Source: an uncultured Gammaproteobacteria bacterium (lineage in GTDB: Bacteria; Patescibacteriota; Microgenomatia; UBA12405). From it: DNA of 64,000 bases. The stretch lies in NCBI GenBank assembly GCA_964503465.1, contig CAZCYZ010000001.1, positions 298,306 through 362,305 on the forward strand, written 5' to 3'. A program made the translations under genes and the position numbers. This document shows, piece by piece, positions 26,525 to 63,972 of the stretch. The notes beneath the pieces are model-generated. The model did not search any database and was not told the origin of the DNA. It was given only the letters and a program-made list of their open reading frames with translations. Each line of letters opens with the position of its first letter. Positions within the stretch are counted from its first letter, which is position 1.

Positions 26525-26526
26525 CC

Positions 26527-28314: not shown

Positions 28315-29037
28315 ATGACCAAAGCCTACCTTCTTCCAGAACTATCTGTCTTTTTTCCCTGTTACAACGTCGAAAAATCTTTTCCCGAAACATTCAGCAA
28401 AACAATCAGTACTCTTCAGAAAATCACCCCTAAATGGGAGGTAATCCTAATCGAGGATGGCTCATACGACGGCACCAAAAAAGTAGTCACCAATTTAGCC
28501 AAAAAATACCCCAAAAACGTTCGGGTCATTTACCATCCCCAAAACTGGGGATATGGAGGCACCATCAAACAAGGCTTGTTTTCGTCTAAATATCAATGGG
28601 TCACTTTTACTGATTCGGATGGTCAGTTCGATTTTTCCGAAATAACCAAGCTAATTTCCGCCCAAAAAAAACACCAAGTCAAAGTTGTTTTGGGCTACCG
28701 TATCAAAAGAGTTGATCCCCCAATCAGGCTATTTATAGGTTTTATGCTCAAAATTTGGTGTTATCTTTGGTTTGGATTTTGGGGGGTCAAAGATATTGAT
28801 TGTGGATTCAAGTTATTCCACAAAGAGGTCCTCGATAAGGTTGGTTCTCTTAAAACAGATAGTGCCATTACCTCAACTGAACTTCTAATTCGTATCCAAA
28901 GACTCGGGTATCAGTGGTCTCAGGTCGGTGTTCATCACTACGAAAGAAAATATGGCAAACAAACCGGATCCAATTTTAAGGTGATGAAGAAAGCCGCCAT
29001 TGACTCAATCAATCTATGGAAAGCTCTTCGGCAATAA
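28315..29037 (+). CDS. GT2 polyprenol-phosphate sugar synthase (DPM1/GtrB/ArnC-like)
   Basis: LSVFFPCYNVEKSFPETF...VILIEDGSYDGT and TDSDGQF (DxD). Its size and motifs resemble Dpm1. Confidence 0.75.
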   Translation: MTKAYLLPELSVFFPCYNVEKSFPETFSKTISTLQKITPKWEVILIEDGSYDGTKKVVTNLAKKYPKNVRVIYHPQNWGYGGTIKQGLFSSKYQWVTFTDSDGQFDFSEITKLISAQKKHQVKVVLGYRIKRVDPPIRLFIGFMLKIWCYLWFGFWGVKDIDCGFKLFHKEVLDKVGSLKTDSAITSTELLIRIQRLGYQWSQVGVHHYERKYGKQTGSNFKVMKKAAIDSINLWKALRQ

Positions 29038-30437
29038 TCAAATTCTGGCATAAAAACTGGCATATCAGTATCGTTATCCTGATAGCCGCTGTTCTTAGAC
29101 TTTATCAGATAGGGGACTATATGGAGTTTCTGGGTGATCAGGGTCGAGATATGGTTATTGTTCGTGATTTTCTCAAAAATGGGAACCTCTTTTTTATTGG
29201 TCCCCAAACCAGCATTGGCAACATGTATCTTGGGCCATTTTATTATTATCTTATTGCCCCATCGCTTTGGCTTGCAAATTACAACCCTATTGGTCCAGCC
29301 ATTCTTGTCGCTTTAATAGGAGTTGCCACCGTGGCACTGATTTACTTTGTCACCGCCAAGTGGTTTGATCCCAAGACTGCCCTGATTGCCGCCTTTTTGT
29401 ATGCTTCCTCGCCTACTGTTATTAAGTATTCAAATTTTTCTTGGAATCCCAACGTTATGCCTTTTTTCTCCCTTTTATTTATCTATCTTTTTTGGCGAAA
29501 GAATTATATTTTGGCTTCGTTTGCCTTTATTATGGCACTCAATTCTCACTTCTTGGCACTATTGCTGCTTCCTACTGCTTTTGTTATTTGGCTTCAAAAT
29601 CGGAGCCATCACCAATCGTTACGTCCAATTATCATCGCCGCGGCTATTTTTCTTATCTCCTTAACTCCACAAATTCTTTTTGATATCAAGCACCAAGGTC
29701 AAAACATTAAAGCAATCACTGGTTTTTTTACCAAACGCGAAACCACCGTCAACGCCAAACTTTACAAAGCTATTCCCAAATTATTCCCTCTTCATTTTCA
29801 AATTACCACCAGTCTTCCTGCGGCCAGGAATCAACTCCTCGGCTATATTATTGGCACCATTCTCATATTTGGCACGATCTATCTTTTGATCATTTCTGAC
29901 TTCCGCCACTACTTTCTTCTGTGGTGGTACCTCGTCGGTCTTATCGGTCTCGGGGTTTACAAGCAACATGTTTACGATCATTATTTTGGATTTATTTTTC
30001 CAGTACTTTATATAATTCTTGCCAAAATAATCACTAAACACCATTACCTTGGTTATTTAATCATTATCCCAATACTTATATTTTCGGTATCAAATTCCCC
30101 CCTCCGTCACCCCTTAAAACAACTCTCCTCCAATCAAAAAATCACCCAACTTATTAATCAAAACTCCAATGGTCAACCATTCAATTTTGCCCTTATTGCA
30201 AAACAAAATTACGATCCACCCTATCTTTATTTTTTTTATCAATCAGGTAGTCCTGTTTATCATATTAACAACAAGCTAACCGATCAACTCTTTGTTGTTT
30301 GTGAGCCATTCCAGGTCGATTGCAACCCCATCAATCACCCCGAATGGTCTATTGCCGCTTTTGGTTGGGCCAAAATAGACAACCAATGGCAAGTTGACGA
30401 CAAGATTGTTTATCGCTTGGTTCATACTCAACCATGA
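29016..30437 (+). CDS. polytopic GT-C-type membrane glycosyltransferase (PMT_2/ArnT-like), paralogue A
   Basis: 473 aa with at least 10 TM helices. N-terminal loop motif FLGDQGRD. Follows the DPM1-like GT2. Confidence 0.55.
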   Translation: MESSSAIIKFWHKNWHISIVILIAAVLRLYQIGDYMEFLGDQGRDMVIVRDFLKNGNLFFIGPQTSIGNMYLGPFYYYLIAPSLWLANYNPIGPAILVALIGVATVALIYFVTAKWFDPKTALIAAFLYASSPTVIKYSNFSWNPNVMPFFSLLFIYLFWRKNYILASFAFIMALNSHFLALLLLPTAFVIWLQNRSHHQSLRPIIIAAAIFLISLTPQILFDIKHQGQNIKAITGFFTKRETTVNAKLYKAIPKLFPLHFQITTSLPAARNQLLGYIIGTILIFGTIYLLIISDFRHYFLLWWYLVGLIGLGVYKQHVYDHYFGFIFPVLYIILAKIITKHHYLGYLIIIPILIFSVSNSPLRHPLKQLSSNQKITQLINQNSNGQPFNFALIAKQNYDPPYLYFFYQSGSPVYHINNKLTDQLFVVCEPFQVDCNPINHPEWSIAAFGWAKIDNQWQVDDKIVYRLVHTQP

Positions 30438-31909
30438 AATATTATTTTATTATCTTTATCTGGCTTAGTGCTCTTTTTCTGCGCTGTTACCGCCAGTCAG
30501 TTCTTCTTGGTTTTTACTATGATCAGGGTCGCGACGCTTTTATTGCTCGAGACATCATCACCACCAAAAACTTCCCCACCATCGGCCCCACCACCGGTAT
30601 TCAGGGCCTTCATCTTGGACCGTTTTGGTACTATCTAATTACTCCCGGTTATCTCTTTGGTCAAGGTAGTCCTGTTATTGCTTCGTATTTCATTGCCTTT
30701 ATAGAAAGCCTTACTGTTCCGCTGATCTTTATGACTCTCAGTCGATATTGGAGTATTCCATCAGCTGTTTTTACTTCCACTCTCTGGGCGTTTAGTTATT
30801 ATATTATTCGTTCAGCCCGTTGGTTTTCCAATCCCTCCCCACTGCCATTTTTTGTTATCCTCATGATTTTTTTTCTGGCCAAAATAATAATTGATAAAAA
30901 AACAAAATTTTTTCCCTACTTAGTTCTTCTTTTTGGTCTTTCCCTTCAGCTTGAAGCAGCTTCAGCCATTTTCTTTTTCCCGTCAATTGCCATTATCCTT
31001 TTCCTTCACCGGCCAATTTTAAAAAGAATTAAGTTTCAGCAGTACGTTTTTGCCGTTGGCCTGTTTCTACTCCTTCTGGTCCCGCAACTGCTTTTTGATT
31101 TAAAAAACAAATTTTTAATCCTCGGTAACTTCCTCAAATTTTTCACCGGTAATCTCAATACCATTCACGGACAAAGCTGGGCCATTCCCAACAAACAATT
31201 CTTGCTACAACGATTAGTTGAGTATTATCGTATATTTTTTTCCAAACTTGACACCAACCTCACCCCAATCGCCATTATCCTTCTTTGTTTATTTGTAATC
31301 AGCCTCATTTTTACCATCAGCAAATATCGCCACCGGCCATTTCTTCAAATAATCTTGGCTTGGCTATTTGTTCCACTCGCACTTCTCTTGTTTTTCATTG
31401 GTAATTATGGTCGACTCTACGACTATTATTTGACTGGTTTTTTTGTTTCCTTTTTTATTCTTTTTGGTATTAGTCTTACCTCGATCCCTGTTCTTCCCAT
31501 TATTGTTTTTGTTTTGTTTATAAAAGGTAATTTTGTTTTTATTCGAAACTACCTTTCTGCTAACCCCGACGGTCCGCAGCACATTAGTCTTGGCAACCAA
31601 CTCCAGGCCCTAAAACACGTTTGCCAAATTACTGGCAATCAACCATACCTACTCAACATCTATCTCCCCGCCATTGTCCCGACCACTTATGACTACTTAT
31701 TAGCCTGGCTTAATAGTCAAGGTTATTGTCAACTACCTCTTCCAACCGATGACCACCAAAACCCATACATTTTTTCACTTTACGAAGTGGATCAGGACCA
31801 TCCTGAACGAATCGAAAAATGGTTAGATGCTCAAAATGTGGTTTATCCCGTTATTTCTCAAACCCACTTCGGTGGTATAGTAGTTCAACAGCGATCAAGA
31901 CCAAAATGA
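30434..31909 (+). CDS. polytopic GT-C-type membrane glycosyltransferase, paralogue B
   Basis: 491 aa and multi-TM. The loop motif YYDQGRDAFIARD matches paralogue A. ATGA overlap with paralogue A. Confidence 0.55.
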   Translation: MKYYFIIFIWLSALFLRCYRQSVLLGFYYDQGRDAFIARDIITTKNFPTIGPTTGIQGLHLGPFWYYLITPGYLFGQGSPVIASYFIAFIESLTVPLIFMTLSRYWSIPSAVFTSTLWAFSYYIIRSARWFSNPSPLPFFVILMIFFLAKIIIDKKTKFFPYLVLLFGLSLQLEAASAIFFFPSIAIILFLHRPILKRIKFQQYVFAVGLFLLLLVPQLLFDLKNKFLILGNFLKFFTGNLNTIHGQSWAIPNKQFLLQRLVEYYRIFFSKLDTNLTPIAIILLCLFVISLIFTISKYRHRPFLQIILAWLFVPLALLLFFIGNYGRLYDYYLTGFFVSFFILFGISLTSIPVLPIIVFVLFIKGNFVFIRNYLSANPDGPQHISLGNQLQALKHVCQITGNQPYLLNIYLPAIVPTTYDYLLAWLNSQGYCQLPLPTDDHQNPYIFSLYEVDQDHPERIEKWLDAQNVVYPVISQTHFGGIVVQQRSRPK

Positions 31910-32682
31910 CCCCCCCAATAGCCATTTCCATTATTATTCCCTGTTACAACGAAGAAGAAAATCTCAAAAGAGGTGTTCTGTTGGAGATGGATAAGTTTTT
32001 GTCCACTCAGAAGTTTGATTATGAAGTTATCATCAGTAACGATCAGTCAACCGACAACAGCCTTAAGTTGATCCAGGATTTTACTAGTAAACATCCCCAC
32101 TTCAAGGTTTTTAGTTTCCCCAAGGGTGGTAAACCAGGTGCTATCTGGAACGGCCTCCAGAAAGCCAAATATCCGTATTCTCTATTCACCGACATGGACC
32201 AATCCACCCCCATTAAGGAAATTCTCAAATTTATACCCTATTATCAGCAGAATTTTGATATTATTATTGGATCGCGTGGCCTGGAACGTCAGGGACAAAG
32301 TTTATTGCGCCAACTTGGTTCAACTGTTTTTTCTACCATTCGTAATTTTTTATTGCATACTCACATCGCGGATACCCAGTGTGGCTTCAAATCTATGAAG
32401 ACTAACATTGCTCTAAAATTGTTCCCTCAACTGGCTGTTATTAAAAATATTCAAAACGGTCAAGGTTGGCGAGTCACTGCCTATGATGTTGAACTCCTAT
32501 TTATCGCCCAGAAACTTGGCTACAAAATTAAAGAAATTGCAGTTAACTGGAAAAACGAGGACACTAGCATCACCAAAGGCAATATTACTGCTCGATATAT
32601 TAGGGAATCGAAACAAATGGCTAAGGAAGTTTGGCGAATTTTTGTCAATAATCTTAAGGGGCTATATGACTCCCAAAATTAA
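31906..32682 (+). CDS. GT2 polyprenol-phosphate sugar synthase (DPM1/GtrB-like)
   Basis: The start was set at the ATG at 31906 (ATGA overlap). ISIIIPCYNEEENL...ISNDQSTDNS and TDMDQS. Confidence 0.7.
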   Translation: MTPPIAISIIIPCYNEEENLKRGVLLEMDKFLSTQKFDYEVIISNDQSTDNSLKLIQDFTSKHPHFKVFSFPKGGKPGAIWNGLQKAKYPYSLFTDMDQSTPIKEILKFIPYYQQNFDIIIGSRGLERQGQSLLRQLGSTVFSTIRNFLLHTHIADTQCGFKSMKTNIALKLFPQLAVIKNIQNGQGWRVTAYDVELLFIAQKLGYKIKEIAVNWKNEDTSITKGNITARYIRESKQMAKEVWRIFVNNLKGLYDSQN

Positions 32683-34099
32683 TCGGCATTTTTGGTTTTT
32701 ATTGCTTGTTTTTCTCATTCTTTACCTTGTAACGCGACTTCAAAATCTCACCGCCATTCCAGTGTTTGGTGACGAGGCTATCTATCTTCGGTGGTCACAA
32801 ATTATCAAGTCAGTTGAGACCTTGCGATTTATTCCTCTGACTGATGGCAAACAACCCCTATTCATGTGGTTGACCGTTCCGATCTTCAAGTTTGTTTCCA
32901 ACCCCCTAATTGCCGGCAGATTACTTTCAGTACTAGCTGGACTAGTTACCGCCATTACCCTGTACTTCATTACTCACACTTGGTATGCTCCTTTCTTCTA
33001 CTTAGTTATCCCATTTACTTTCTTTTTTGATCGTCTTGCCCTGTCAGATGGTCTGCTGTCAATGTTTGGAGGTCTTTCTCTTTTGTTTTCACTTCTTCTA
33101 GCTACCAACCCCAGATTAGACTTGTCGCTGATTCTTGGGGGAATACTCGGACTTAGTTGGTTGACCAAATCACCCGCCATTTTTTTTATTATCCTTGCTT
33201 TTTTTACTTTTTTAGTCTTCAATTTTAATCCCAAAAAAGTCAAGTACGTATTCTACCCATTAATTTCTCTTTTTGTCGCTTTTTGCATCTACAATGTCCT
33301 TCGTCTTGGTCCTCAATTTCATCAAATAGCACTTCGTAATCAAGATTATGTTTGGCCAATAACTGAAATTCTTCGCCACCCACTTGATCCTCTAAAGCCC
33401 CATCTTTCCGACATAGTCACTATTTTCTCTCAATACATTGGCCCAATACTTGTGTTATTACTATTGTCTCCGCGGCTTTTCTTATCATCACCCAAGTTGT
33501 CCTTAGTCCTCGTTAGTTGGTCAATCTTTCCACTTTTGGCCAATGCTATCTTTGCTAAGGTTTTTACTGCCCGCTACGTCCTTTATACCGTTCCCCCTCT
33601 CATTTCATTCATCAGTCTAACTATTAATCAATACAGATTTAAATACAAAAAATTGTTTCTTGTTCTTTGTCTTGTTCCCAACATTTATTGGCTTTACCGT
33701 ATTTCATTTAACCCCGCCACAGTTATTCTCCCTTCAACTGAAACCGGTTACCTTCAAGAGTGGACTTCGGGTTGGGGGATCAGCGACGCTGCTGGCTATC
33801 TTATCACTCGTGCCAAGGAGGCCAATGTTATTGTTGGAACCGAAGGATACTTTGGTACCCTCCCCGATGGACTTCAAATTTTTGTTAATAACGTCCCTCG
33901 GCTAACTGTCGTTGGTGTCGGTTTAGGCTTTACCCAAATACCCTCAAATCTTCTCAATGCCTATAATTTTGGTGATGAAGTTTATCTTCTTATCAATCAA
34001 TCTCGACTAAAACTTGATTCCTCCGAGCTTCAAAAACTCAAGGTAGTACGCGAGTATCCAAAGCCCGGGAATGATAAACTAGTTCTATTCCAATTATGA
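32666..34099 (+). CDS. GT-C membrane glycosyltransferase, ArnT/PMT family (DE motif)
   Basis: The start was set at the ATG at 32666. First extracytoplasmic loop reads IPVFGDEAIYLRWSQ (DE motif). At least 11 TM helices. Confidence 0.65.
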   Translation: MTPKINRHFWFLLLVFLILYLVTRLQNLTAIPVFGDEAIYLRWSQIIKSVETLRFIPLTDGKQPLFMWLTVPIFKFVSNPLIAGRLLSVLAGLVTAITLYFITHTWYAPFFYLVIPFTFFFDRLALSDGLLSMFGGLSLLFSLLLATNPRLDLSLILGGILGLSWLTKSPAIFFIILAFFTFLVFNFNPKKVKYVFYPLISLFVAFCIYNVLRLGPQFHQIALRNQDYVWPITEILRHPLDPLKPHLSDIVTIFSQYIGPILVLLLLSPRLFLSSPKLSLVLVSWSIFPLLANAIFAKVFTARYVLYTVPPLISFISLTINQYRFKYKKLFLVLCLVPNIYWLYRISFNPATVILPSTETGYLQEWTSGWGISDAAGYLITRAKEANVIVGTEGYFGTLPDGLQIFVNNVPRLTVVGVGLGFTQIPSNLLNAYNFGDEVYLLINQSRLKLDSSELQKLKVVREYPKPGNDKLVLFQL

Positions 34100-35760
34100 G
34101 TCGGGTCTACCTCCTAATTTTATTATTGCTCACCCTTCCTGCTACTGCCTTCCTCTTCAGGCCAGGTGAATATTGGAACATGCACGATGATATGCAAATG
34201 GTTCGACAGCTGGAACTAGAAAAATGCTTACTAGACGGCCAAATTCCTTGTCGTTGGGTTCCTGATTTGGGTTTTGGTTACGGTTACCCATTGTTTAATT
34301 TTTATCCCCCCTTCCCTTATTTTGTTGGTCAAGTTTTCCGTCTTTTTAGTTTTTCATTCGTTGCCACTGTTAAATTAACTGCCATTACTCAAATTATCGC
34401 CTCTTCGCTAACTATGTTTCTTTTAGCTTCGTCACTTTTTGGTAATCTTGGTGGTCTTATTGCCGCTTTGTTTTATGTTTATGCCCCATATCACGCTCTT
34501 AATATCTTCGTTCGTGGGGCTATGAACGAAGCCTGGGCATCTGTTTTCTTTCCCCTCATTTTTTATTTCGGTCGCCGTCTTATTAACAAACCGCAACTAT
34601 CGTCAATCTTTTTTCTGGCCATTTCTTATGCCGGCATACTGCTTTCCCACAACCCCATGGCCTTAATCATTGCTCCTTTCTTTTTCCTCTGGTGTCTTTA
34701 CTTTTTTATCAGACAACCCCGCACTAAAACTATTTTATATTTATTTCTATCCGGTGTTTTGGCTATTTCACTTTCAGCTTTCTACACCCTCCCGGTTCTC
34801 TTGGAAACTAAATATGTTCAAATAGAAAGCATGTTTCAAAATTATTACCATTTTTCAGTCCACTTTACCACTCTTTTTCAATTATTTATCAGTAATTTTT
34901 GGGGTGATGGAGCTTCAGTTTGGGGAACCGAGGACAATATGTCCTTTGCCGTTGGCTATCTCCATTGGATAATCCCGGTTTTAATTCTTGGCTACCTCAT
35001 TTTTTACTCATTAAAAAAACACAAGCGCCACCCACACCTTATTCTTGTCAGTCTAATTTTTACCATGGCCTTGACCACTCTTTTTATGACTCATAATAAG
35101 TCAACTCCAATTTGGTTACTTGCTAAATTTATCCAAAAGATTCAATTCCCCTGGCGCTTTCTTAATTTAAGCGTTTTTTTTACCAGTCTCCTAGTTGGGG
35201 TTTTAGGAAAACTCTCTCGCCCAATCACTATAATTGTCATTCCCGCTCTTATTATTCTCAATCTGCGTTACTTTACCCCCCTCACTCACGGGCCAATTAC
35301 AGATCAACAAAAATTTTCTGGTCAATCATGGACCTACCAGATTACCTCAGGTATTTATGATTATCTCCCCAAAACTGCTCGAATTGCCGCCCAGTCAAAA
35401 GCCACTGAATTTATCGATCAAACAGATCCTAAGACGTCATATCAGTTAACTGGTCAAAAACACGGAACTGACTGGTTGTTCTTCAACCTTTCACTTCCTC
35501 AAACCACTACAGTTACTATGTCTCAGTTAGCATTTCCCAAATTTGTTATCACTGACAACGGTCGCCAAATAAACTACCAAATCGAACCCGAGTTGGGGCG
35601 AATGGTAATAAGTTTGCCCGCTGGAACCCATCAGCTTTATCTTAAACTCCACAATACTCCCGTTCGTACATTCTCAAACATTGTTAGCTGCCTAGCTATT
35701 CTTTTAGTTGTCATATATTTTTCTTTACGCCATTCCACCTCATGGATCAACAAGAAATAA
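34096..35760 (+). CDS. large polytopic membrane protein, GT-C-like (YfhO / PTPS-related-type)
   Basis: 554 aa. MHDDMQMVRQLELEKCLLDGQIPCRWVPDLGFGYGYPLFNFYPP, about 11 TM helices and a C-terminal soluble domain. Confidence 0.4.
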   Translation: MSRVYLLILLLLTLPATAFLFRPGEYWNMHDDMQMVRQLELEKCLLDGQIPCRWVPDLGFGYGYPLFNFYPPFPYFVGQVFRLFSFSFVATVKLTAITQIIASSLTMFLLASSLFGNLGGLIAALFYVYAPYHALNIFVRGAMNEAWASVFFPLIFYFGRRLINKPQLSSIFFLAISYAGILLSHNPMALIIAPFFFLWCLYFFIRQPRTKTILYLFLSGVLAISLSAFYTLPVLLETKYVQIESMFQNYYHFSVHFTTLFQLFISNFWGDGASVWGTEDNMSFAVGYLHWIIPVLILGYLIFYSLKKHKRHPHLILVSLIFTMALTTLFMTHNKSTPIWLLAKFIQKIQFPWRFLNLSVFFTSLLVGVLGKLSRPITIIVIPALIILNLRYFTPLTHGPITDQQKFSGQSWTYQITSGIYDYLPKTARIAAQSKATEFIDQTDPKTSYQLTGQKHGTDWLFFNLSLPQTTTVTMSQLAFPKFVITDNGRQINYQIEPELGRMVISLPAGTHQLYLKLHNTPVRTFSNIVSCLAILLVVIYFSLRHSTSWINKK

Positions 35761-38839: not shown

Positions 38840-38850
38840 TAAACTAGCTT

Positions 38851-55184: not shown

Positions 55185-55977
55185 AAAACACTTTATCTCT
55201 GTTATTGTACCCATATATCAACAGGCCCGAACTATCCGTCAGGACCTTTATTCCATCTATGACACCCTCGAACAAATTCGATACGATTACGAAATTATTG
55301 CCATTGTTGACGGAACAAGCATCGATAATTCATACCAGGAAGCCAAGAAACTCAAACTCAAAAGACTAAAGGTTATCGGATATCCTCAAAATAAAGGTAA
55401 AGGTTATGCAGTCAGGTTTGGCATGGCACACACCACAGGCGATTACATTGCCTTTATTGATTCTGGAATGGATATTGATCCTAATGGTATTTCCATGATT
55501 CTAGAACACATGGAGTGGTATCAGGCCGATATTGTTGTTGGCTCAAAACGTCACCCGGCCTCACAAATCAACTACCCACTTCATCGTCGTATTATCAGTT
55601 TTGGTGCCCAATTAATTGCCAAATACCTACTTAACATTAATGTCACCGATACTCAGGTGGGGTTAAAGATTTTCCGCCGTCCAGTACTCGAAAAAGTTCT
55701 CCCTCGTCTTCTAGTCAAAACATTCGCTTTCGACCTCGAAATATTGTCTGTTGCTAACCGTTTAGGTTTTAGCAAAATTTACGAAGCCCCCATCAAAATA
55801 AATTTTGATTTCTCGGGATCTCATCTTCAGGGTAAATTCTTTCAAACCCTTCTTCTTTGCCTCAAAGATTCTTTGGCAGTTTTTTATCGCCTCCGGCTAC
55901 TTCGATACTACGATGATACCAGCAGAAGAAGGTGGAAATTTGATCCTCAACTTAAAATGCGTGTTAACATCGGTTAA
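55174..55977 (+). CDS. GT2 glycosyltransferase (DPM1/GtrB-like)
   Basis: ISVIVPIYQQARTIRQDL...IIAIVDGTSIDNS and FIDSGMDIDP. Confidence 0.7.
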   Translation: MKDKKHFISVIVPIYQQARTIRQDLYSIYDTLEQIRYDYEIIAIVDGTSIDNSYQEAKKLKLKRLKVIGYPQNKGKGYAVRFGMAHTTGDYIAFIDSGMDIDPNGISMILEHMEWYQADIVVGSKRHPASQINYPLHRRIISFGAQLIAKYLLNINVTDTQVGLKIFRRPVLEKVLPRLLVKTFAFDLEILSVANRLGFSKIYEAPIKINFDFSGSHLQGKFFQTLLLCLKDSLAVFYRLRLLRYYDDTSRRRWKFDPQLKMRVNIG

Positions 55978-56939: not shown

Positions 56940-58368
56940 CTTTTTAATATCTATTTCGTACCCACCCCTATCATCACCCAAAGGTGTTCCCTTCCTTTCA
57001 CAAAACCGCCAATTTCAGTGGACCAATACAGACAATGTTATTTATCCCGTTGTTCCCGCCTACGCTGCCACCCTTCTTGTCAAAAATGGCTACCATGTTT
57101 TTTGGGATGATGCCATTGCTCAAAAACTTACCAAACAACAGTGGTTGGCTCGAATCATTAAACAACGCCCAAACCTCATTGCTATTGAAACCAAAACCCC
57201 AGTTATCAAAACACATTGGCGAATTATCAACACCCTTAAACAGAAGCTGCCTAAAACAATTATTGTTTTAATGGGTGACCATGTTACCGCTCTCCCCCAG
57301 GAATCTTTCCAGCATTCTAAGGTTGACTATGTTCTCACCGGTGGAGACTATGATTTCATGCTCCTTAACCTTGCTAATCACCTTACTAAAAAAACAAGTT
57401 TGGAACCAGGATTTTACATGTCAAGTTCCAACACGGGTCAATTCAAGCCTCACCATCATCTTGGTCAACTTCCAGTCCTTGACCGCCAGCTCACCCAATG
57501 GCAACTGTATTCTCGCCATAATACCAACTATAAGTACAAACCCGGTGCTTATATTATGTCAGCTCGTGATTGTTGGTGGGGCAAGTGCACCTTTTGTTCC
57601 TGGACTACTCTCTATCCTTCCTATCGCACTCTTTCTGTTAAACAAACTATCAATGAAATCAAAAACTTGGTTAAATTGGGTACTCGGGAAATATTTGACG
57701 ATGCTGGTACTATTCCAGTTGGCCCATGGCTTGGTGATCTTTGCCACCAGCTAGTTGATCAAGGACTAAATCAGAAGGTCACAATTAGTTGTAATATGCG
57801 TTTCGGTGCTCTCAATCAACAGCAATATCAATTAATGGGTCAGGCGGGTTTTCGTTTCCTTCTCTATGGACTCGAGTCAGCCAACCAAATGACCATTGAT
57901 CGGCTCAAGAAAAACATCAAAATTGACTGGATCAAAAGAGACCTAAAATGGGCAAAACAAGCTGGTCTCGAACCACACGTTACTATCATGATCGGTTACC
58001 CTTGGGAAGATTTATCTCAAGCCAAAAACACCCTATCTTTATCAAAGGAACTTTTTCGTCTTGGCCTAGTTGATAGCATGCAAGCCACCATTGTCATCCC
58101 TTATCCTGGTACCCCGCTTTTTGACTATTGTCAAAAAAACCAATTGCTTCTATCAACCAACTGGAATGACTACGATATGCGTCAACCAATAATGAAATCA
58201 CCTTTAACTCACCATCAGCTCCAAACATTAATTGATTCTCTTTTTAAATCAGCCTGGGAACCGAAGTTCCTTATTCGCAAAGTACTCTCTATTAGGTCAA
58301 TCGACGATATCAACCATCTAGTCAACTATGCCATTAAATTCTTACAAAAACTCCGTGACTTTAGTTAG
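56920..58368 (+). CDS. B12-binding-domain radical SAM protein (variant CX4CX2C cluster motif)
   Basis: The start was set at the ATG at 56920. N-terminal Rossmann-like B12-binding-type region (VPAYAATLLVKNGYHVFWDD). Then MSARDCWWGKCTFCSW, then a TIM-barrel-like region. Confidence 0.5.
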   Translation: MATSAVNFLISISYPPLSSPKGVPFLSQNRQFQWTNTDNVIYPVVPAYAATLLVKNGYHVFWDDAIAQKLTKQQWLARIIKQRPNLIAIETKTPVIKTHWRIINTLKQKLPKTIIVLMGDHVTALPQESFQHSKVDYVLTGGDYDFMLLNLANHLTKKTSLEPGFYMSSSNTGQFKPHHHLGQLPVLDRQLTQWQLYSRHNTNYKYKPGAYIMSARDCWWGKCTFCSWTTLYPSYRTLSVKQTINEIKNLVKLGTREIFDDAGTIPVGPWLGDLCHQLVDQGLNQKVTISCNMRFGALNQQQYQLMGQAGFRFLLYGLESANQMTIDRLKKNIKIDWIKRDLKWAKQAGLEPHVTIMIGYPWEDLSQAKNTLSLSKELFRLGLVDSMQATIVIPYPGTPLFDYCQKNQLLLSTNWNDYDMRQPIMKSPLTHHQLQTLIDSLFKSAWEPKFLIRKVLSIRSIDDINHLVNYAIKFLQKLRDFS

Positions 58369-59374
58369 TATCATTATCCCCACCCTCAATGCTGGTAGGG
58401 TCCTAATACCATGTCTCAAATCGATCGTCAAACAGAATTATCCACATACTGAGATCATTATTGCCGATGGTGGTTCAACCGACAATACCATTGCTATTGC
58501 CAACAAATTTAAAACCAAAATTGTTACCAATCAACTCAAGACCGCCGAAGCTGGTAAGGCCATCGGGCTCAAATATGCCAAAGGTCAATATATCGCCTTC
58601 ATCGATTCGGACAACATCCTCCCATATACGAACTGGCTGTCAACTATGCTAATTCCATTTAAAGACTCCGATATCGTCTGTACCGAACCAATCCGCTTTA
58701 CCTATCGTCGCAACGGGGGATTTATCGAGCGCTACGGTGCTCTTCTTGGGGCCAATGATCCTTATGCATGGTTCACTGGCGTTTATGATCGCTATAGTTA
58801 TCTTACCAACAATTGGACAGGTCTAAAATTAGATCAAATAGACAATCATAAATATATATCTGTCAATTTTAATAATAGTCAAATTCTCCCCACCATTGGT
58901 GCTAATGGGACTATCTTTAGGGCTAGTTTTCTCAAAAAGTACTTTTTCGGTCACTATCTTTTTGATATTGACATTCTTTCTTTGGCTTTACAGAAGAAAA
59001 ATACAGTTAAGGTTGCCAAACTAAAAACTGGCATTATCCATACATATTGTGAGTCATCAATTTCAAAATTCATTCGTAAACAAACCCGTCGTTTAACTGA
59101 CATGTATCAATACCAATCCATTCGCCAATATAACTGGCACCAAAAAAATAACATTTTCTCACTCGTTAAATCTAACTTTCGCTTTGCTCTCTACTCTATT
59201 CTCGTTCTTCCCGCGCTATTCGATTCTGTGCGTGGTTACCTCAAGAAAGCCGACTCGGCTTGGTTTTTCCATCCAATCGCCTGTTTTTTGTCTTTTATCA
59301 TTTATACCAGAGTAACCGTGGCTCATCTTCTTGGTATAAAACAGTATACCAGTAGACAACAATGGCAACAGTAA
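58328..59374 (+). CDS. GT2 glycosyltransferase
   Basis: VSIIIPTLNAGRVLIPCLKSI...IIIADGGSTDNT and FIDSDN. Confidence 0.65.
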   Translation: MPLNSYKNSVTLVSIIIPTLNAGRVLIPCLKSIVKQNYPHTEIIIADGGSTDNTIAIANKFKTKIVTNQLKTAEAGKAIGLKYAKGQYIAFIDSDNILPYTNWLSTMLIPFKDSDIVCTEPIRFTYRRNGGFIERYGALLGANDPYAWFTGVYDRYSYLTNNWTGLKLDQIDNHKYISVNFNNSQILPTIGANGTIFRASFLKKYFFGHYLFDIDILSLALQKKNTVKVAKLKTGIIHTYCESSISKFIRKQTRRLTDMYQYQSIRQYNWHQKNNIFSLVKSNFRFALYSILVLPALFDSVRGYLKKADSAWFFHPIACFLSFIIYTRVTVAHLLGIKQYTSRQQWQQ

Positions 59375-60468
59375 AACCAGGAATCTTAATCTTAAGTCCA
59401 TTTTTCTCTCCCAACATTGGTGGTGTCGAAACTCATCTTGATGATTTGGTTGCGGGTCTTCAAAATTTTTCTGTTTTTGTATTTTCTTACTCTCCAATTA
59501 CTACCCCCAATGTTCGTTATCAAATTTTTGAAAAACGAGGAAACCTCCAAATCGTCCGCCTTCCCCACTTTGGTAAAAATCTCTTCCACCAGCTAGAAAA
59601 ATATTCCATCCTTGACTTTTTATATCTCACACCATACCTTTTAATCTTCTCATTTTTATGGATGCTTTTTAACTCATCCAAAGTTAAGACAATTCATTCT
59701 CATGGTTTTAATGCCGCTTTTATTGGTAATCTCCTGGCCACTTTCTTTCGCAAAAAACATGTTACCTCAACTCATGCTGTTTACGAACACATTCATGGTC
59801 TCAGTTTAAAGTTAGTCGTTGCCACCCTTTCCGCCGTCGACCACATTCTCTGCCTTTCCCAAGCCTCACAAAAACAACTTTTAAGCTGGGGACTAAGTCC
59901 TGCCAAAACAAGCCTTTATCAATATTGGATTAACTTAAATAATTTTGTTCCAGTCACCACTCCACCCAAAAAATTTACTGTTCTTTATGTTGGCCGCTTA
60001 ATCACAAAGAAGGGAATCCGATTAATCCTTCAATCAGCCATCAATATTCGTTCTGCCCAATTTAACTTTATCGGTACTGGACCAGCAGAAGAAACCATTA
60101 GAAGGTTTTCCAAAAAATACAAAAATATTAATTTCACTGGCCCCATCCCCAATTCCTATCTACCTCAGTACTATCAACAAGCATCCATACTCTGCCTTCC
60201 GTCACTTTATCCCGAAGGTTATGGCCGAGTTGTCATGGAAGCGGTTGCGTCTGGACTACCTGTTATCGCCTCCAACACCGCTGGTCTCAAAGAAGCTTTA
60301 AGCTCCAAAGTTGCTATTCTTATCAAGCCAACTGTCAAAAATCTCACTTTGGCTATTAAAAAACTCCAGCATAAACAAACTTATAATCATCTTCGTCGAA
60401 ACTGCCGTCACTATGCCCTTGCAAAGTTTAGCTCCTCAAATATAAAATCGATCACCAGGTTCTATTAA
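59362..60468 (+). CDS. GT4 (GT-B) glycosyltransferase
   Basis: ILSPFFSPNIGGVETHLDDL, and C-terminal EGYGRVVMEAVASGLPVIASNTAGLKEAL. Confidence 0.7.
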   Translation: MATVKPGILILSPFFSPNIGGVETHLDDLVAGLQNFSVFVFSYSPITTPNVRYQIFEKRGNLQIVRLPHFGKNLFHQLEKYSILDFLYLTPYLLIFSFLWMLFNSSKVKTIHSHGFNAAFIGNLLATFFRKKHVTSTHAVYEHIHGLSLKLVVATLSAVDHILCLSQASQKQLLSWGLSPAKTSLYQYWINLNNFVPVTTPPKKFTVLYVGRLITKKGIRLILQSAINIRSAQFNFIGTGPAEETIRRFSKKYKNINFTGPIPNSYLPQYYQQASILCLPSLYPEGYGRVVMEAVASGLPVIASNTAGLKEALSSKVAILIKPTVKNLTLAIKKLQHKQTYNHLRRNCRHYALAKFSSSNIKSITRFY

Positions 60469-62231
60469 TGAAAGTCTTATTCATCCTTCCCTACCACAAT
60501 GCCTCGGCCGCCGTTTTCGAAAACGGTCAATGCCTTGAATATCTTCATGAAGAAAAGTTTACCAATATCAAAAGCCACTGGGGATTTCCCGGGTTGTCAG
60601 TAGACTATCTTGTCAACAAGTATTCCCTAAAATCTACTGACCATGTTGTTTTTTCCGGTAAACAGCTCCTTCTTCATACTCTTCCAAAACCATCCAGTAA
60701 CCTAGCAGAGGACATTGGCACCAATCCCCATCTCCGACAATTAACCAATTACGTTGAATACAAGACTAAAGCCAAAAAACTTTTTTTTACCATCCGCTCA
60801 ATCTTTCTTGACAAAATAATCTCTCCATTAGCCAGAAACCAAATGCGACAATATCTCTTAACAAGATACAATGTACCAACCAATAATACACATTTTTTTG
60901 ACCACCATCTCTGTCACGCCCTTTCTCCAGTTCATTTTTATAATCTTCACTCTCAAACTCACCCAATTTTAATCTTTACTATGGATGGAAGCGGGGACAA
61001 TTATTTCTCAAAAACTTTCATATATTATCCTGCCAACAACAAACTCAAACCAATTGCTAAGTCTCGTTTTGATTCATCTCTCGGACTGCTATATTCTGGT
61101 TTAACCCAATTTTTGGGGATGAAACCTTACGAGCATGAATACAAAGTTATGGGATTAGCTGCTTACCCTAACGATCCAAAATACTACCAAAACATTCTCA
61201 TTCGTCTTCAAAAAGATTTTGGTTATGATCAAAAGTCTCAAACATTTCAATCATCATTCAACACCAACTATTCATTTTATTATTTTAAAGAACATTTTGT
61301 TGGTCAAAGGTTCGATAATCTAGCCGCTGCTCTCCAAACACACCTCGACAACCTTATAACACTATGGATCACCACTACTATTAAAAAATACCACATCCAC
61401 ACCATCGCTTTATCGGGTGGGGTTTTTATGAACGTCAAGGTTAATAAGCTAATTCAAGAGCTCCCCTTAGTCAAAAAGGCTTATTTTATGCCATCTGCAG
61501 GAGATGAAAGTCTTGGTTGGGGAGCGGCATATCAAATTTTTTCTCAAAGAAAAATTAACACCCAGTCCAATTCTACTATGTTTCTTGGGCTTAATTATTC
61601 AAATCAACAAATCCAAGCATTTATTAAAAAAAATAGATTAGATAAAAAATTTGATATAAAGTATTTAAAAAATCCCAGCCAAAAAATTGCCAATTTACTT
61701 AGCCATCATCAAGTTGTTGCCTGGTTTACTGGAGCAGGGGAGTGGGGTGCTCGATCTTTGTGTCATCGGACGATTCTTGCCAATGCCTCTGATTTCAATT
61801 CTTATCACCAGGTCAATGATGCTATCAAAATGCGTGACTTCTGGATGCCTTTTGCCCCGACAATTCTCTTCGATTGGGCACCAAGATATATTAAAAACTG
61901 GCAAAAATTAAAAAACAAAATCAAAGAAAGTTCCAAATATATGATTACTGCATTTGACTCCACCCCATTGGCTCAAAAACACCTAATTGCTGCCATCCAC
62001 TCCAAAGACAAAAGCCTCCGCCCCCAATTGGTCGAAAAATCGGACCACCCAACACTCTATCGACTCCTCAAATATTTCGAAAAATATACCGGTATGGGCG
62101 GGGTGATGAATACATCTCTCAACATCCATGGTTATCCGTTAGTTGGCAACCTCAATCAGGCTATTTTCACCCTCGAGAACTCCCAGCTTAAGTATCTGGT
62201 TCTAGAAAACTATCTTCTTATTAAAAAATGA
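60468..62231 (+). CDS. NodU/CmcH/TobZ-family O-carbamoyltransferase
   Basis: 587 aa. N-terminal MKVLFILPYHNASAAVFENGQ...EEKFTNIKSHWGFP. HHLCHALSPVHF is the family His signature. A C-terminal YrdC/Kae1-like domain. Confidence 0.7.
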   Translation: MKVLFILPYHNASAAVFENGQCLEYLHEEKFTNIKSHWGFPGLSVDYLVNKYSLKSTDHVVFSGKQLLLHTLPKPSSNLAEDIGTNPHLRQLTNYVEYKTKAKKLFFTIRSIFLDKIISPLARNQMRQYLLTRYNVPTNNTHFFDHHLCHALSPVHFYNLHSQTHPILIFTMDGSGDNYFSKTFIYYPANNKLKPIAKSRFDSSLGLLYSGLTQFLGMKPYEHEYKVMGLAAYPNDPKYYQNILIRLQKDFGYDQKSQTFQSSFNTNYSFYYFKEHFVGQRFDNLAAALQTHLDNLITLWITTTIKKYHIHTIALSGGVFMNVKVNKLIQELPLVKKAYFMPSAGDESLGWGAAYQIFSQRKINTQSNSTMFLGLNYSNQQIQAFIKKNRLDKKFDIKYLKNPSQKIANLLSHHQVVAWFTGAGEWGARSLCHRTILANASDFNSYHQVNDAIKMRDFWMPFAPTILFDWAPRYIKNWQKLKNKIKESSKYMITAFDSTPLAQKHLIAAIHSKDKSLRPQLVEKSDHPTLYRLLKYFEKYTGMGGVMNTSLNIHGYPLVGNLNQAIFTLENSQLKYLVLENYLLIKK

Positions 62232-62857
62232 CCAACTATTACCACCGATATTGGCAAAAAAAACTTAAAAGCAAAAGTCAGGGAAGTCCACCTATCTGGA
62301 CCCAAGCAAACTTCAACTATCATTTTGATTTTGCAAAACCATACTTTGGATCAAAAATACTCGACATTGGAGCCGGTGACGGCACCTTCGACAACTATCT
62401 CCAATCAAAAATTAATTCCAATGTCATCTCGCTTGAGCCTACCCTACAGGCTATCAAACAAGGTCAAAAACTCTACCCCAATAACAAGTTTATAAACTCC
62501 TCAGCCGAAAAACTTCCGTTTTCCGCAAACAGCTTCAACACCGCCCTTCTTATTGAAGTTATCGAACACTTAATCGATACCGATATCGCTTTGTCAGAGA
62601 TATATCGAATTTTAAAACCAAAAGGATATCTATTTATCACCACCACTGATTTTAATTTTCTCAAAAAGGTTCTCCTTGCCGCCTTCGCTTGGGACAAATA
62701 TTTTTACCCCAATAATCCCCATATCCGCTTCTTTACTCGTCAAACACTAACAGAAATCTGCTCAACACATCATTTTAAATTAATTAAGTACCAATGGAAC
62801 GGTAGTTATTTTCACCTAATGCCCAAAGGTCAAATGGCTATCTTTCAAAAATGCTAA
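62228..62857 (+). CDS. class I SAM-dependent methyltransferase
   Basis: ILDIGAGDGTF and LKPKGYLFITT. ATGA overlap with the carbamoyltransferase. Confidence 0.6.
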   Translation: MTNYYHRYWQKKLKSKSQGSPPIWTQANFNYHFDFAKPYFGSKILDIGAGDGTFDNYLQSKINSNVISLEPTLQAIKQGQKLYPNNKFINSSAEKLPFSANSFNTALLIEVIEHLIDTDIALSEIYRILKPKGYLFITTTDFNFLKKVLLAAFAWDKYFYPNNPHIRFFTRQTLTEICSTHHFKLIKYQWNGSYFHLMPKGQMAIFQKC

Positions 62858-63972
62858 AACCAAAAACTATTTTTGTTGCCAACAACAATATCGGCATTGG
62901 ACTCTCTGGCGGTGATCGCATATTTCTAGAACTTGCTCGCTATTGGCAACCCAAAACCGATTTAATCATTATCGGTTCTGCCGAAACCAAAAGATTAATC
63001 AAAAGATACCGACTCCCCCCTATCACTTTTCATCAAACCGACACCATCAGCCGTCGTCAACTACTCACCCATCAGCTCCACCGAACTCTTAAGGCTATCA
63101 AATTTGTACTTAAACATCATCATCTCTTTCGAGAAACTCAATACATATATACTGCTTCAGACTTTATTCCTGACTTAATTTTTGGACCTTTAGCCAAGAT
63201 AATCAACCCGAACATTCATTGGATTGCCGGCTACTACCTCATAGTTCCGCCGCCATGGCAAAACAACACCTATCACCCCCTTTATTATTTTTCCCAGCTT
63301 ATTACTCGATCACTCACCAACCTAATGGCCAATACCGTTTATTTAACTTCTACACCCGATCAAAAGTTTTTTTCTCCAAAAAAAAGCATTATCGTTCAAG
63401 GTGGAGTTACCCCAGTCAAAAATACCACTAAACTCAAGTCAAAATATCAGGCAGTCTTCATCGGACGTCTCCACCCCCAGAAAGGAATCCTCGAGCTCGT
63501 CGACATTTGGCGTCTAGTAGTCAACCAAATTCCACTGGCCAAATTGGCTGTTATTGGTAACGGCCCGCTTCTACATCAAATCAAAAGAAAAATAAAAAAA
63601 CTTAAACTCCTATCAAATATCTCTCTTCTTGGCTTCCTCGACGGTCCACCAAAAAATAAAATAATTCGCCAAGCACAAATTGTTCTTCACCCGGCCACTT
63701 ATGACAGTGGTGGCATGGCCGCCGCCGAAGCCATGCTTTTTGGGCTGCCAGGAATCTCCTTTGACCTTCCCGCTCTCCTTACTTACTACCCCCAAGGAAT
63801 GATCAAAACTCCTTGCTTCTGTTATCAAAAGTTTGCCGACAATATTATTAACTTGTTGACCAACCCGGTGCTTTACCAAACAACATCCACTAAAGCAAAA
63901 AACTTAATTCATAAAGATTGGCTTTGGCCACAACGTGCCAACTTAATTTTTCAAAAGACATTCCTGCTATAA
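62851..63972 (+). CDS. GT4 (GT-B) glycosyltransferase
   Basis: VFIGRLHPQKGILELVD, and C-terminal GGMAAAEAMLFGLPGISFDLPAL. Confidence 0.65.
   Translation: MLKPKTIFVANNNIGIGLSGGDRIFLELARYWQPKTDLIIIGSAETKRLIKRYRLPPITFHQTDTISRRQLLTHQLHRTLKAIKFVLKHHHLFRETQYIYTASDFIPDLIFGPLAKIINPNIHWIAGYYLIVPPPWQNNTYHPLYYFSQLITRSLTNLMANTVYLTSTPDQKFFSPKKSIIVQGGVTPVKNTTKLKSKYQAVFIGRLHPQKGILELVDIWRLVVNQIPLAKLAVIGNGPLLHQIKRKIKKLKLLSNISLLGFLDGPPKNKIIRQAQIVLHPATYDSGGMAAAEAMLFGLPGISFDLPALLTYYPQGMIKTPCFCYQKFADNIINLLTNPVLYQTTSTKAKNLIHKDWLWPQRANLIFQKTFLL

Follow-up and report, generated by a model that had tools for sequence, protein, structure and literature searches.

A probable lineage-wide operon of Microgenomates bacteria, rich in GT-C membrane enzymes, for a surface glycan assembled on both membrane faces

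We analysed a stretch of 64,000 nucleotides (nt) from contig CAZCYZ010000001.1 of assembly GCA_964503465.1 (hereafter the window), which carries a run of 30 co-directional open reading frames (ORFs) on the + strand, from position 28315 to position 63972, most of them encoding glycosyltransferases (GTs). Our interpretation, to which we give a probability of about 0.72, is that this run is a lineage-wide operon of Microgenomates for a complex cell-surface glycoconjugate, the glycan of which would be assembled on both membrane faces. The list of parts fits such a two-sided pathway, a logic published for Gram-positive wall polymers: there, polyprenyl-phosphate sugars are formed by a GT-A enzyme, carried across by a flippase (Wzx-type in the case of GacK) and used outside by a GT-C enzyme that transfers the sugar (PMC8035078).

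Thirty tightly packed genes

Taking the longest possible ORFs, a choice from which some of the longer overlaps stem, the genes overlap or abut at 28 of the 29 junctions. Seven junctions are 4-nt overlaps of the ATGA or GTGA kind, three overlap by 1 nt and three by 8 nt, and the single intergenic gap measures 11 nt (38839/38851). The first-pass annotation of this DNA had described just such a one-strand run with overlapping start and stop codons. The only - strand ORF of at least 100 amino acids (aa), at 40671–41024, lies wholly inside + strand genes, and a scan for promoter-like and terminator-like sites inside the cluster found them at chance level. This tight co-directional packing without an excess of internal sites supports the reading of the run as an operon. 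By eye, most of the genes lack a recognisable purine-rich Shine-Dalgarno sequence in the 20 nt upstream (28295–63972), in keeping with translational coupling by overlapping stop and start codons, or else with an organism poor in such sequences.

Pfam families together with predicted folds place 26 of the 30 genes among the glycosyltransferases: 11 belong to GT2, 4 to GT4 and 11 have a GT-C fold. The other four encode a Wzx flippase, a B12 radical-SAM (S-adenosylmethionine) protein, a carbamoyltransferase and a methyltransferase. Family counts come from the Pfam scan, and genes are named by the start of their longest ORF (51780 for T5, 54042 for GT4b, 56869 for the radical-SAM gene and 44300 for the Gpi18-like gene). 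The earlier tally agrees with ours for GT2, for the four remaining genes and for the presence of at least ten polytopic GT-C proteins, the eleven now being counted by Pfam, paralogy and predicted fold; its five GT4 genes are reduced to four (41457, 54042, 59362, 62851). To our knowledge, this is the densest GT-C gene set in any prokaryote.

A Wzx flippase, many GT2 and GT4 enzymes and tailoring enzymes are also typical of ordinary O-antigen, capsule or teichoic-acid loci of the Wzx/Wzy or ABC type, but we consider it highly improbable that the run is one of these. In the Pfam scan, no cluster protein of the window matched Wzy_C, Wzz or a lipopolysaccharide (LPS) core family, and no O-antigen ligase, Wza, TagF/TarL-type polymerase or ABC exporter was matched either. 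Membership of the Wzx/Wzy class would call for Wzy, Wzz/PCP and an initiating phosphoglycosyltransferase, which were matched in none of the 30 genes nor in the related loci examined. The sole Wzy candidate, 44300, has a predicted ALG6/PIG-M-type GT-C fold, and eleven GT-C genes have no counterpart in such loci. Finally, a sortase and an LCP (LytR-CpsA-Psr) protein are encoded in the window, and LPS genes are not. The first-pass annotation, which had noted the lack of an O-antigen ligase, Wzz and LPS-core genes, was thus right to see no resemblance to an O-antigen or capsule locus.

Its further statement that nucleotide-sugar genes are missing stands within 28315–63972, where Pfam finds no sugar-nucleotide enzyme, but not beyond the window end. 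The locus L001, identical to the window from 52851 onward, continues past it with four more + strand genes over ~3.7 kb, to about 67.7 kb equivalent, so that the run extends as had been guessed. These genes directly follow and encode a HAD-family hydrolase, an NTP_transferase protein and two proteins of unknown function, and thereby supply candidate nucleotide-sugar genes; the apparent absence of nucleotide-sugar genes is therefore partly due to where the window ends. We count the downstream nucleotidyltransferase and hydrolase in favour of the proposed operon.

Eleven polytopic proteins of the GT-C superfamily

Nine of the eleven polytopic proteins were assigned to GT-C by Pfam and paralogy, and two, without a Pfam match, by AlphaFold models. 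Eight are PMT_2 or PMT proteins (29016, 30434, 32483, 45549, 47144, 48718, 50207, 51780), six of them above the Pfam cut-off; the sub-threshold 30434 and 51780 are clear paralogues of above-threshold members. C1 (29016..30437; like all genes of the run, on the + strand) scores 28.7 bits with PMT_2 against a cut-off of 26.1 and carries GDQGRD after its first transmembrane (TM) segment. Its paralogue C2 (30434..31909; 29% identity, E values from 1e-21 to 1e-24) falls just below the cut-off with 25.8 bits and carries YDQGRD. C3 (32483..34099; PMT_2, 27.3 bits) has the sequence FGDEAIY after its first hydrophobic segment, and its true start is probably Met62, at ~32666. C4p (34096..35760) is a GT-C-like polytopic protein of the PTPS_related family (PF10131, 34 bits against a cut-off of 26.4) with HDD after TM1, and its orthologues in two related loci (L081, L086) also match PMT_2.

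Further along, five tandem paralogues, T1 to T5 (45549–53396), are mutually 28–35% identical in an all-against-all BLAST. T1 (45549..47147), T3 (48718..50247) and T4 (50207..51820) match PMT_2 at 1.4e-9, 4.6e-8 and 7.1e-9, and T2 (47144..48721) matches PMT at 1.5e-9. T5 (51807..53396, the start being that of public gene call P0001) stays below the PMT_2 cut-off with 24.5 bits and matches T4 at 1e-77. Six of the 11 GT-C proteins (T1–T5 and 32483) have a literal DE in the loop that directly follows TM1. The first-pass annotation had ascribed such an ArnT/PMT-type DE motif to several of them; this is borne out for these six, whereas the other five carry different acidic motifs after TM1: DQGRD in C1 and C2, HDD in C4p, an invariant H43-D44 in the protein of 37154 (U561) and an invariant HPDxxNHxDWG in the Gpi18-like protein of 44300. 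We infer that the acidic loop is oriented outward, to the extracytoplasmic side. Hydropathy plots give about 6–14 hydrophobic segments for each of the eleven candidates.

The two remaining proteins, 37154 (561 aa) and 44300 (418 aa), had no Pfam or NCBIfam match even at E <= 1. Homologues were collected, 33 of each were aligned and structures were then predicted. Both models are mostly helical bundles, and every strong PDB match to them is a GT-C enzyme. The Gpi18-like protein (44315..45556; pLDDT 91.6, pTM 0.91) belongs by predicted fold and profile to the ALG6/ALG3/PIG-M/PimE structural class: Foldseek against the PDB returned ALG6 (2.2e-7), ALG3, GPI-MT-I and PimE with TM-scores of about 0.6–0.67, and the family profile matches GPI mannosyltransferase 1 by sequence at 7e-8. 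Its homologues bear the Joint Genome Institute name 'Gpi18-like mannosyltransferase'. The candidacy of 44300 as a Wzy or O-antigen ligase was rejected on its predicted ALG6/PIG-M-type fold. Pfam and AlphaFold thus both support the GT-C families and folds that the first-pass annotation had proposed to check, and all eleven polytopic proteins fit the GT-C superfamily at the level of fold, their activity being predicted.

PimE and GPI mannosyltransferase I have lipid-anchored glycans as their substrates, and the matches of the Gpi18-like protein to these two enzymes bear on the nature of the product. It is possible, at somewhat less than even odds, that the run makes a membrane lipoglycan or a wall heteropolysaccharide resembling mycobacterial lipomannan/lipoarabinomannan (LM/LAM) and arabinogalactan (AG), with cytoplasmic GT4 and GT2 enzymes acting on a glycolipid or polyprenyl primer, GT-C enzymes that elongate and branch it serially outside and, optionally, ligation to peptidoglycan by an LCP protein. 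An LCP gene lies 4.5 kb upstream, the sortase indicates a wall of Gram-positive type, and a series of non-redundant GT-C enzymes is an actinobacterial hallmark in the Emb/Aft/Mpt/PimE literature (compare PMC12041525 and PMC2440535). Pfam scans of the window, however, found no decaprenyl-phosphate-arabinose (DPA) genes (UbiA/DprE), and there are no Emb-sized proteins with carbohydrate-binding domains and no ABC exporter. This explanation is a version of the two-sided pathway with a specified acceptor rather than a true alternative to it.

The flippase and the adjoining U561 protein

The Wzx-type (MOP) flippase gene (35742..37187; Polysacc_synt_3 3.4e-43, Polysacc_synt 6e-21) is followed by U561 (37154..38839), whose AlphaFold model (pLDDT 90.7, pTM 0.90) has a GT-C fold with a C-terminal globular domain like that of AglB/STT3. 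The structural matches of U561 span enzymes with protein acceptors (DPY19, Pmt, STT3) and enzymes with glycan or lipid acceptors (AftA, ALG12, ArnT); as both classes occur among them, the fold does not discriminate between acceptors. STT3 has no Pfam match in U561 at E <= 1, the family consensus reads LTYPYD with no WWDYG, and the family profile matched no PDB sequence. We tried U561 as a true oligosaccharyltransferase (OST) of the STT3/PglB type and rejected that family membership, given the missing WWDYG and STT3 match; only its fold and the shape of its C-terminal domain are OST-like.

Among 1.84 billion cluster representatives, a search for U561 relatives found 1326 at E <= 1e-3, of which 601 reach E <= 1e-30. 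Many members are 1000–1150 aa long and consist of an N-terminal signal anchor, an extracytoplasmic domain of ~400 aa (X) and then the U561 domain. Proteins with the X domain include P0373, P0385 and the longer P0399, and they occur in the loci L086 (1868–6787), L087 (10001–13465) and L024 (2–2164). The X domain matched nothing in the Pfam scan or among PDB sequences; the precomputed annotation of one member labels it DUF3863. P0399 (1639 aa), a single observation, joins Wzx, X and U561 in one ORF, immediately preceded by a C4p-like gene, as is Wzx in the window. The adjacency of Wzx and U561 is constant, even in the distant locus L087, which keeps the order GT2 - PMT_2 - GT2 - PMT_2 ... Wzx - [X-U561] - GT2 and has, in addition, genes for heptose-type sugar activation and a fusion of a GT2 with a GtrA-type membrane domain. 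Constant adjacency and one fusion suggest that the substrate of U561 is the molecule moved by Wzx. From its sequence and model, U561 appears to represent a new, sizeable Wzx-coupled GT-C family without a Pfam model, and it is the best candidate for the enzyme handling the flipped intermediate.

If the acceptor were a protein, U561 would act as an OST that transfers the flipped lipid-linked oligosaccharide (LLO) en bloc to S-layer proteins, pilins or sortase-anchored proteins, and/or the PMT_2-type enzymes would O-glycosylate secreted proteins directly, as Ppm1/Pmt do. The invariable neighbourhood of U561 and Wzx, with its one fusion, speaks for such protein glycosylation, as do the PMT score of T2 above the Pfam threshold and a sortase-substrate DUF11 protein (VPTTG) encoded divergently at the cluster start. 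Nevertheless, U561 has neither WWDYG nor an STT3 match in Pfam even at E <= 1, and no acceptor protein was identified; we regard this explanation as doubtful.

Conservation across Microgenomates

A scan anchored on the single-copy Gpi18-like protein, keeping one genome per species, returned 78 loci, in which ORFs were labelled by BLAST to the window proteins. The order Wzx - U561 - GT2 - GT2 - GT2 - GT4 - GT2 - (~780-aa protein) - GT2 - Gpi18-like - T1 - T2 - T3 - T4 - T5 - GT2 - GT4 is found again in Shapirobacteria, Woesebacteria, Blackburnbacteria and further Microgenomates; complete genomes that have it are CP011214 (819 kb), CP055307 (902 kb) and OZ246419 (811 kb). On long contigs around U561 or T5 homologues, the first module (GT2a - GT-C - GT-C - GT2a - GT-C - C4p) and the segment after the array (GT2 - GT4 - GT2a - GT2 - radical-SAM - GT2) are also conserved, and the tail beyond ~59.4 kb differs between genomes. 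The 37 full-length loci (21 kb), each from a different species, hold 5–11 GT-C-like ORFs (median 8), and ~95% of their cluster-homologous ORFs are co-directional. The multiplicity of GT-C paralogues, which the first-pass annotation had called highly unusual, is therefore unusual next to characterised bacteria but not rare in Microgenomates. The comparison of gene order that it had called for, across related metagenome-assembled genomes (MAGs), reveals conservation, but not of an LPS or teichoic-acid locus.

Around this fixed core, the set of GT-C genes differs between loci. Many relatives (L003, L006, L013, L017, L026 and others) have an extra ORF of ~750–830 aa between the equivalents of 42635 and 43512, not present in the window, which in one of them (L084, 1–1291) is a YfhO-family GT-C by precomputed annotation; some carry extra T-like, Gpi18-like or C4p-like copies.

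In a neighbour-joining tree of 137 T-like ORFs and the five window copies, the sequences fall into five clades matching array positions 1 to 5. Each clade contains one window paralogue and almost exclusively ORFs from one array position (21–28 each), which indicates that the duplications predate the split of these lineages. All 142 array sequences share D41, E42, D58 and R367 (T5 numbering) without exception, and all five copies are predicted to have stayed catalytically intact. Ancient clades combined with invariant catalytic residues argue for five distinct, non-redundant reactions. Since the same gene order recurs across a bacterial class, the conserved operon probably builds a lineage-defining surface glycan.

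Orthologues of T5 with 58–72% identity are encoded in many MAGs labelled Candidatus Shapirobacteria, and the window has matches in a 470-kb NCBI contig and in a Logan contig from SRR8925802. By this sequence evidence the host is a bacterium of the candidate phyla radiation (CPR), within Microgenomates and Candidatus Shapirobacteria, in line with an earlier guess of a CPR-like organism. Loci with the same gene order occur in many records titled 'uncultured Gammaproteobacteria bacterium isolate ... binchicken/SRP...' (L004, L005, L010, L013 and others); on Microgenomates-specific loci, these titles look wrong and seem to be placeholders.

Candidate donor synthases and cytoplasmic transferases

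Three of the 11 GT2 proteins are candidate polyprenyl-phosphate sugar synthases. GT2a1 (28315..29037; Glycos_transf_2 3e-26) is short and lacks a TM helix; its best solved relative is ArnC (4.7e-13 over residues 7–219), and its ArnC/PpgS-like NCBIfam match reaches 60 bits against an ArnC cut-off of 529. GT2a2 (31819..32682; Glycos_transf_2 1.5e-22) is closest to GtrB (sll0501; 3.2e-13 over residues 32–219). GT2a3 (55174..55977), PpgS-like in NCBIfam below the cut-off, is closest to the dolichol-phosphate mannose synthase (DPMS) of P. furiosus (1.4e-14 over residues 8–222). Two of these genes immediately precede GT-C genes: 28315 is followed by 29016/30434, and 31819 by 32483/34096.

Such pairs would be expected if the locus were a set of independent GT-A/GT-C decoration modules, merely co-located and each adding one sugar to a different polymer, as with csdAB/CD/EF of L. 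lactis or csbB-yfhO, ykcBC and ykoST of B. subtilis. The GT-A/GT-C pair is the known unit of those systems (PMC8035078), and the gain and loss of GT-C genes among relatives (YfhO, T-like, Gpi18-like and C4p-like copies) points to modularity. We nonetheless hold this explanation to be unlikely. Eleven GT-C enzymes face only three candidate donor synthases, T1–T5 have no interleaved GT2a gene and keep their order and one-to-one orthology across classes, and 12 further cytoplasmic GTs and the Wzx would be left without a role.

The same figures qualify the pairing of lipid-phosphate-sugar synthases with GT-C enzymes that the first-pass annotation had put forward. It is supported by the three GT2 nearest to ArnC, GtrB and DPMS, two of them upstream of GT-C genes, but by only three of eleven, and it leaves out eight GT2, four GT4 and the Wzx, which form the apparent cytoplasmic half of an LLO pathway.

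By family, these eight GT2 and four GT4 proteins resemble ordinary cytoplasmic transferases that depend on nucleotide sugars. Between U561 and the Gpi18-like gene lie GT2s1 (38851..39792; Glycos_transf_2 1.5e-20), which is paralogous to 40714 and 53393, GT2e1 (39792..40721; Glyco_tranf_2_3 1.6e-14), GT2s2 (40714..41481; Glycos_transf_2 1.6e-14), GT4a (41457..42638; Glycos_transf_1 2e-23), GT2e2 (42635..43519; Glycos_transf_2 1.4e-21) and GT2e3 (43512..44336; Glycos_transf_2 1.6e-24). The T array is followed by GT2s3 (53393..54145; Glycos_transf_2 1.6e-21) and GT4b (54126..55184, start from the public gene call; Glycos_transf_1 2.2e-23), then, beyond GT2a3, by GT2x (55977..56939; Glycos_transf_2 5.7e-12, Glyco_trans_2_3 5.7e-10) and GT2y (58328..59374; Glycos_transf_2 1.6e-23), which has a C-terminal hydrophobic, TM-like segment at residues 317–335. 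GT4c (59362..60468; Glycos_transf_1 1.2e-27) opens the variable tail, and GT4d (62851..63972; Glycos_transf_1 8e-22) is the last gene before the co-directional run goes on past the window.

A proposed two-sided pathway

We propose the following scheme, in which the steps are read from protein families, closest relatives and predicted folds. The ~8 soluble GT2 and four GT4 enzymes would build an oligosaccharide from nucleotide sugars on polyprenyl-(pyro)phosphate or another lipid primer, and the Wzx-type flippase would move this lipid-linked intermediate to the outer face. In parallel, 28315, 31819 and 55174 would load polyprenyl phosphate with single sugars. Outside, the 11 GT-C proteins (C1–C3, C4p, U561, the Gpi18-like protein and T1–T5), whose assignment follows from fold and motifs, would take these lipid-linked sugars as donors and, one after the other in a set sequence, lengthen and branch the glycan. 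The B12 radical-SAM protein, the carbamoyltransferase and the methyltransferase would tailor sugars. The product could be attached to peptidoglycan, with the LCP protein encoded 4.5 kb upstream as a possible ligase, remain lipid-anchored, or be placed onto protein.

Several points weigh against this scheme. Neither the window nor the related loci examined contain an initiating phosphoglycosyltransferase of the WecA/WbaP type, and a GtrA-type protein was not found in the window. There is one flippase only, while the oligosaccharide and the polyprenyl-phosphate sugars both need to cross the membrane. GacK, which is of the Wzx type, is believed to translocate a C55-P-monosaccharide (PMC8035078), and by this precedent the Wzx may carry the donors across instead of the oligosaccharide. 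C-terminal TM helices like those of GtrB and ArnC are missing from the three GT2a proteins, which also score far below the NCBIfam equivalog cut-offs; for short proteins of this kind 'candidate donor synthase' is the strongest claim that can be made. PMC8035078 leaves room for a soluble GT-A that acts together with a distinct membrane protein. The profile of the five T paralogues retrieved nothing from PDB sequences even at E <= 1, so that the GT-C assignment of this family rests on Pfam and the DE motif; hhalign of the same shallow profile against the single proteins 37154, 44300, 34096 and 32483 gave probabilities of 0.4–40%. More generally, the function of every cluster protein is read from homology, and sequential GT-C action from conserved order and orthology.

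A bolder form of the proposal would make the locus a bacterial counterpart of the two-compartment pathway of the eukaryotic endoplasmic reticulum (ER), in which an LLO is built, flipped by Wzx, matured by ~10 GT-C enzymes and transferred en bloc by U561. Within this reading, which we judge distinctly unlikely, U561 may be a new kind of oligosaccharyltransferase or ligase from a previously unrecognised GT-C family. If true, serial extracytoplasmic maturation of LLOs by GT-C enzymes would not be restricted to eukaryotes, to which the lumenal series of GT-C enzymes in N-glycosylation seems confined according to Lombard 2016 (PMC4973528).

Tailoring genes and genomic setting

The B12-binding radical-SAM gene (56920..58368; Radical_SAM 6e-13, B12-binding 3e-6; weakly HpnJ/BchE/PhpK-like), probably involved in glycan tailoring, has a conserved position in relatives. 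Two other tailoring genes belong to the variable tail: the carbamoyltransferase (60468..62231; Carbam_trans_C 5e-46, Carbam_trans_N 5e-30), which is absent from this position in two related loci (L083, L084) and for which a look-up of the exact sequence returned no record, and a SAM-dependent methyltransferase (62228..62857; Methyltransf_11 2e-18).

Directly after the cluster, L001 has a convergent - strand module (14799–21122, about window-equivalent 67.6–74 kb) of two B12 radical-SAM genes, a GT2, a short epimerase-like protein, another radical-SAM gene and a TPR protein. By eye, its proteins give the impression of being richer in Lys, Arg, Val and Gly than the cluster proteins, and it may be a separate or acquired tailoring module.

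The 28 kb upstream of the cluster is mainly housekeeping (UvrA, UvrC, three aminoacyl-tRNA synthetases, SecA, GreA, TypA, a release factor, FtsEX) and also encodes the sortase (7941–8648, - strand), the LCP protein and the DUF11 surface protein. The LCP gene (22796..23806, + strand; LytR_cpsA_psr 2e-20), for a possible glycopolymer-to-wall ligase with a putative link to the cluster, opens a + strand run (22796–27624) with a methyltransferase, a small single-pass membrane protein (24496–24981), FtsE, FtsX and an M23 peptidase. The likely ligase thus sits beside cell-division and wall-remodelling genes. The adjacency of the LCP and small membrane protein genes was also seen in L085, the sole metagenome fragment (1.2 kb) from a scan with the LCP protein as query.

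The DUF11 gene (27618–28322, - strand), a Pfam assignment, diverges from the cluster start. Its product has a signal peptide and ends in VPTTG, a hydrophobic stretch and RKFSRDY, a sorting signal of the sortase type. The divergent promoter region between the two (28230..28314), defined by consensus matches only, holds a perfect TTGACA-17-TATAAT on the - strand (28289–28261) and a 9/12 match on the + strand (28236–28265). As the perfect match falls inside the longest DUF11 ORF, that gene probably begins at the Met of MQSVLRQL.

A further short GT2 (241 aa; 6119–6844, + strand; Glycos_transf_2 2.3e-32, also Glyco_transf_21) lies directly after uvrC, ~21 kb upstream of the cluster, and could be another synthase of a lipid-linked sugar or a glycolipid. 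Searches for tRNA and Rfam families in the window found none. An extreme strand-wide GC skew, (G-C)/(G+C) = -0.225 on the + strand, runs across the whole window (1–64000) and is also seen in L001 at 11179–21122. At third codon positions the skew is -0.32 to -0.57, with the same sign for + and - strand genes, and therefore does not stem from the coding strand. The C-rich strand carries about 55 of 60 genes; under the usual rule of a G-rich leading strand, should it apply, these would face replication head-on.

Comparison with known systems

CPR bacteria, whose surfaces have hardly been characterised, are believed to live in attachment to other cells. The operon, of at least 39 kb, is estimated to take up 4–5% of a genome of 0.8–0.9 Mb (the size of relatives' complete genomes), an investment which suggests that the glycan is central to Microgenomates biology, be it for keeping the envelope intact, for attaching to hosts or for evading phages and predators. 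Public annotation names the proteins 'glycosyltransferase family 39' or 'phospholipid carrier-dependent glycosyltransferase'. A literature search on glycosyltransferases of Shapirobacteria, Woesebacteria, Microgenomates, CPR and Patescibacteria, with most subscription journals outside its reach, found no paper describing the locus. T1–T5 offer a natural series of five ancient paralogues, predicted to be active, for studying how GT-C acceptor specificity evolves, and the locus reveals the U561 family. It also provides concrete targets, among them the GT2a/GT-C pairs, lectins or antibodies with which to probe Microgenomates cells and glycan markers that could serve to enrich them.

Two systems of lipid A and O-antigen modification and the actinobacterial Ppm1/Pmt system of protein O-mannosylation share the pairing of a donor synthase with a GT-C enzyme. 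As in ArnC/ArnT and GtrA/GtrB/GtrC, a polyprenyl-phosphate sugar synthase goes with a GT-C protein, and among solved structures 28315 is nearest to ArnC and 31819 to GtrB. Unlike in these systems, there is no lipid A or O-antigen machinery here; no protein matched the ArnT equivalog, and 28315 lies below that of ArnC as described. Ppm1/Pmt (GT39) likewise combine a DPMS-like GT2 with PMT/PMT_2-class GT-C enzymes carrying DE in loop 1, with one Pmt per genome as against eleven GT-C proteins here, and the T profile retrieved no Pmt structure by sequence.

The N-glycan LLO pathway of eukaryotes and archaea (ALG GTs, RFT1-type flippase, DPM1/ALG5, ALG3/9/12/6/8/10, STT3/AglB) has the same two-sided topology and list of parts: soluble GTs, a MOP/Wzx flippase, a DPMS-like GT2, an ALG6/ALG3/PIG-M-like GT-C protein and a GT-C with an AglB-like C-terminal domain. 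It differs in possessing WWDYG and STT3, to which nothing in the locus corresponds in motif or Pfam match, and an Alg7-type primer enzyme, also missing here; moreover, most GT-C proteins of the locus are of the PMT_2/ArnT class. By this comparison the resemblance lies in logic and fold.

Actinobacterial AG and LM/LAM synthesis (PimE, MptA/B/C, AftA-D, EmbA/B/C, Ppm1) is similar in that GT-C enzymes act serially outside on a lipid-linked glycan begun by GT4 and GT2 enzymes, with an LCP protein near. U561 and the Gpi18-like protein match AftA and PimE in predicted structure only. No orthology to actinobacterial GT-C enzymes was seen at the sequence level (T and U561 profiles against the PDB; no UbiA/DprE-type Pfam matches). 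DPA-pathway genes and the carbohydrate-binding C-terminal domains of Emb proteins are absent from the locus, and here all genes lie in a single operon, in a genome under about 1 Mb.

The multi-component (three-component) transmembrane glycosylation systems of Gram-positive wall polymers (CsbB/GtcA/YfhO, GtlA/GtlB, CsdAB/CD/EF of L. lactis and GacI/J/K/L of S. pyogenes; PMC8035078) consist of a GT-A enzyme, a flippase of the GtrA or Wzx type and a GT-C of the PMT_2/YfhO type, to which the candidate donor synthases, the Wzx and the GT-C proteins of the locus would correspond. They share with the locus the adjacency of GT-A and GT-C genes (28315/29016; 31819/32483) and a Gram-positive-type wall with LCP proteins. 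The locus differs from them in its 11 GT-C genes, three candidate donor synthases, one Wzx and 12 cytoplasmic GTs within one operon, in the lack of a GtrA-type flippase in the window, in GT2a proteins without TM helices and in a five-gene array fixed across the class. Whereas the known systems add single decorating sugars, much of the glycan is here probably built outside the membrane. The locus fits the logic of Gram-positive wall-polymer glycosylation scaled up about ten-fold. Its individual enzyme classes are all already known, and it is best described as a locus for lipid-carrier-dependent extracytoplasmic glycosylation; what appears new is the gathering of at least 11 GT-C genes in one operon, the fixed and ancient five-gene array, and the Wzx-coupled GT-C family.

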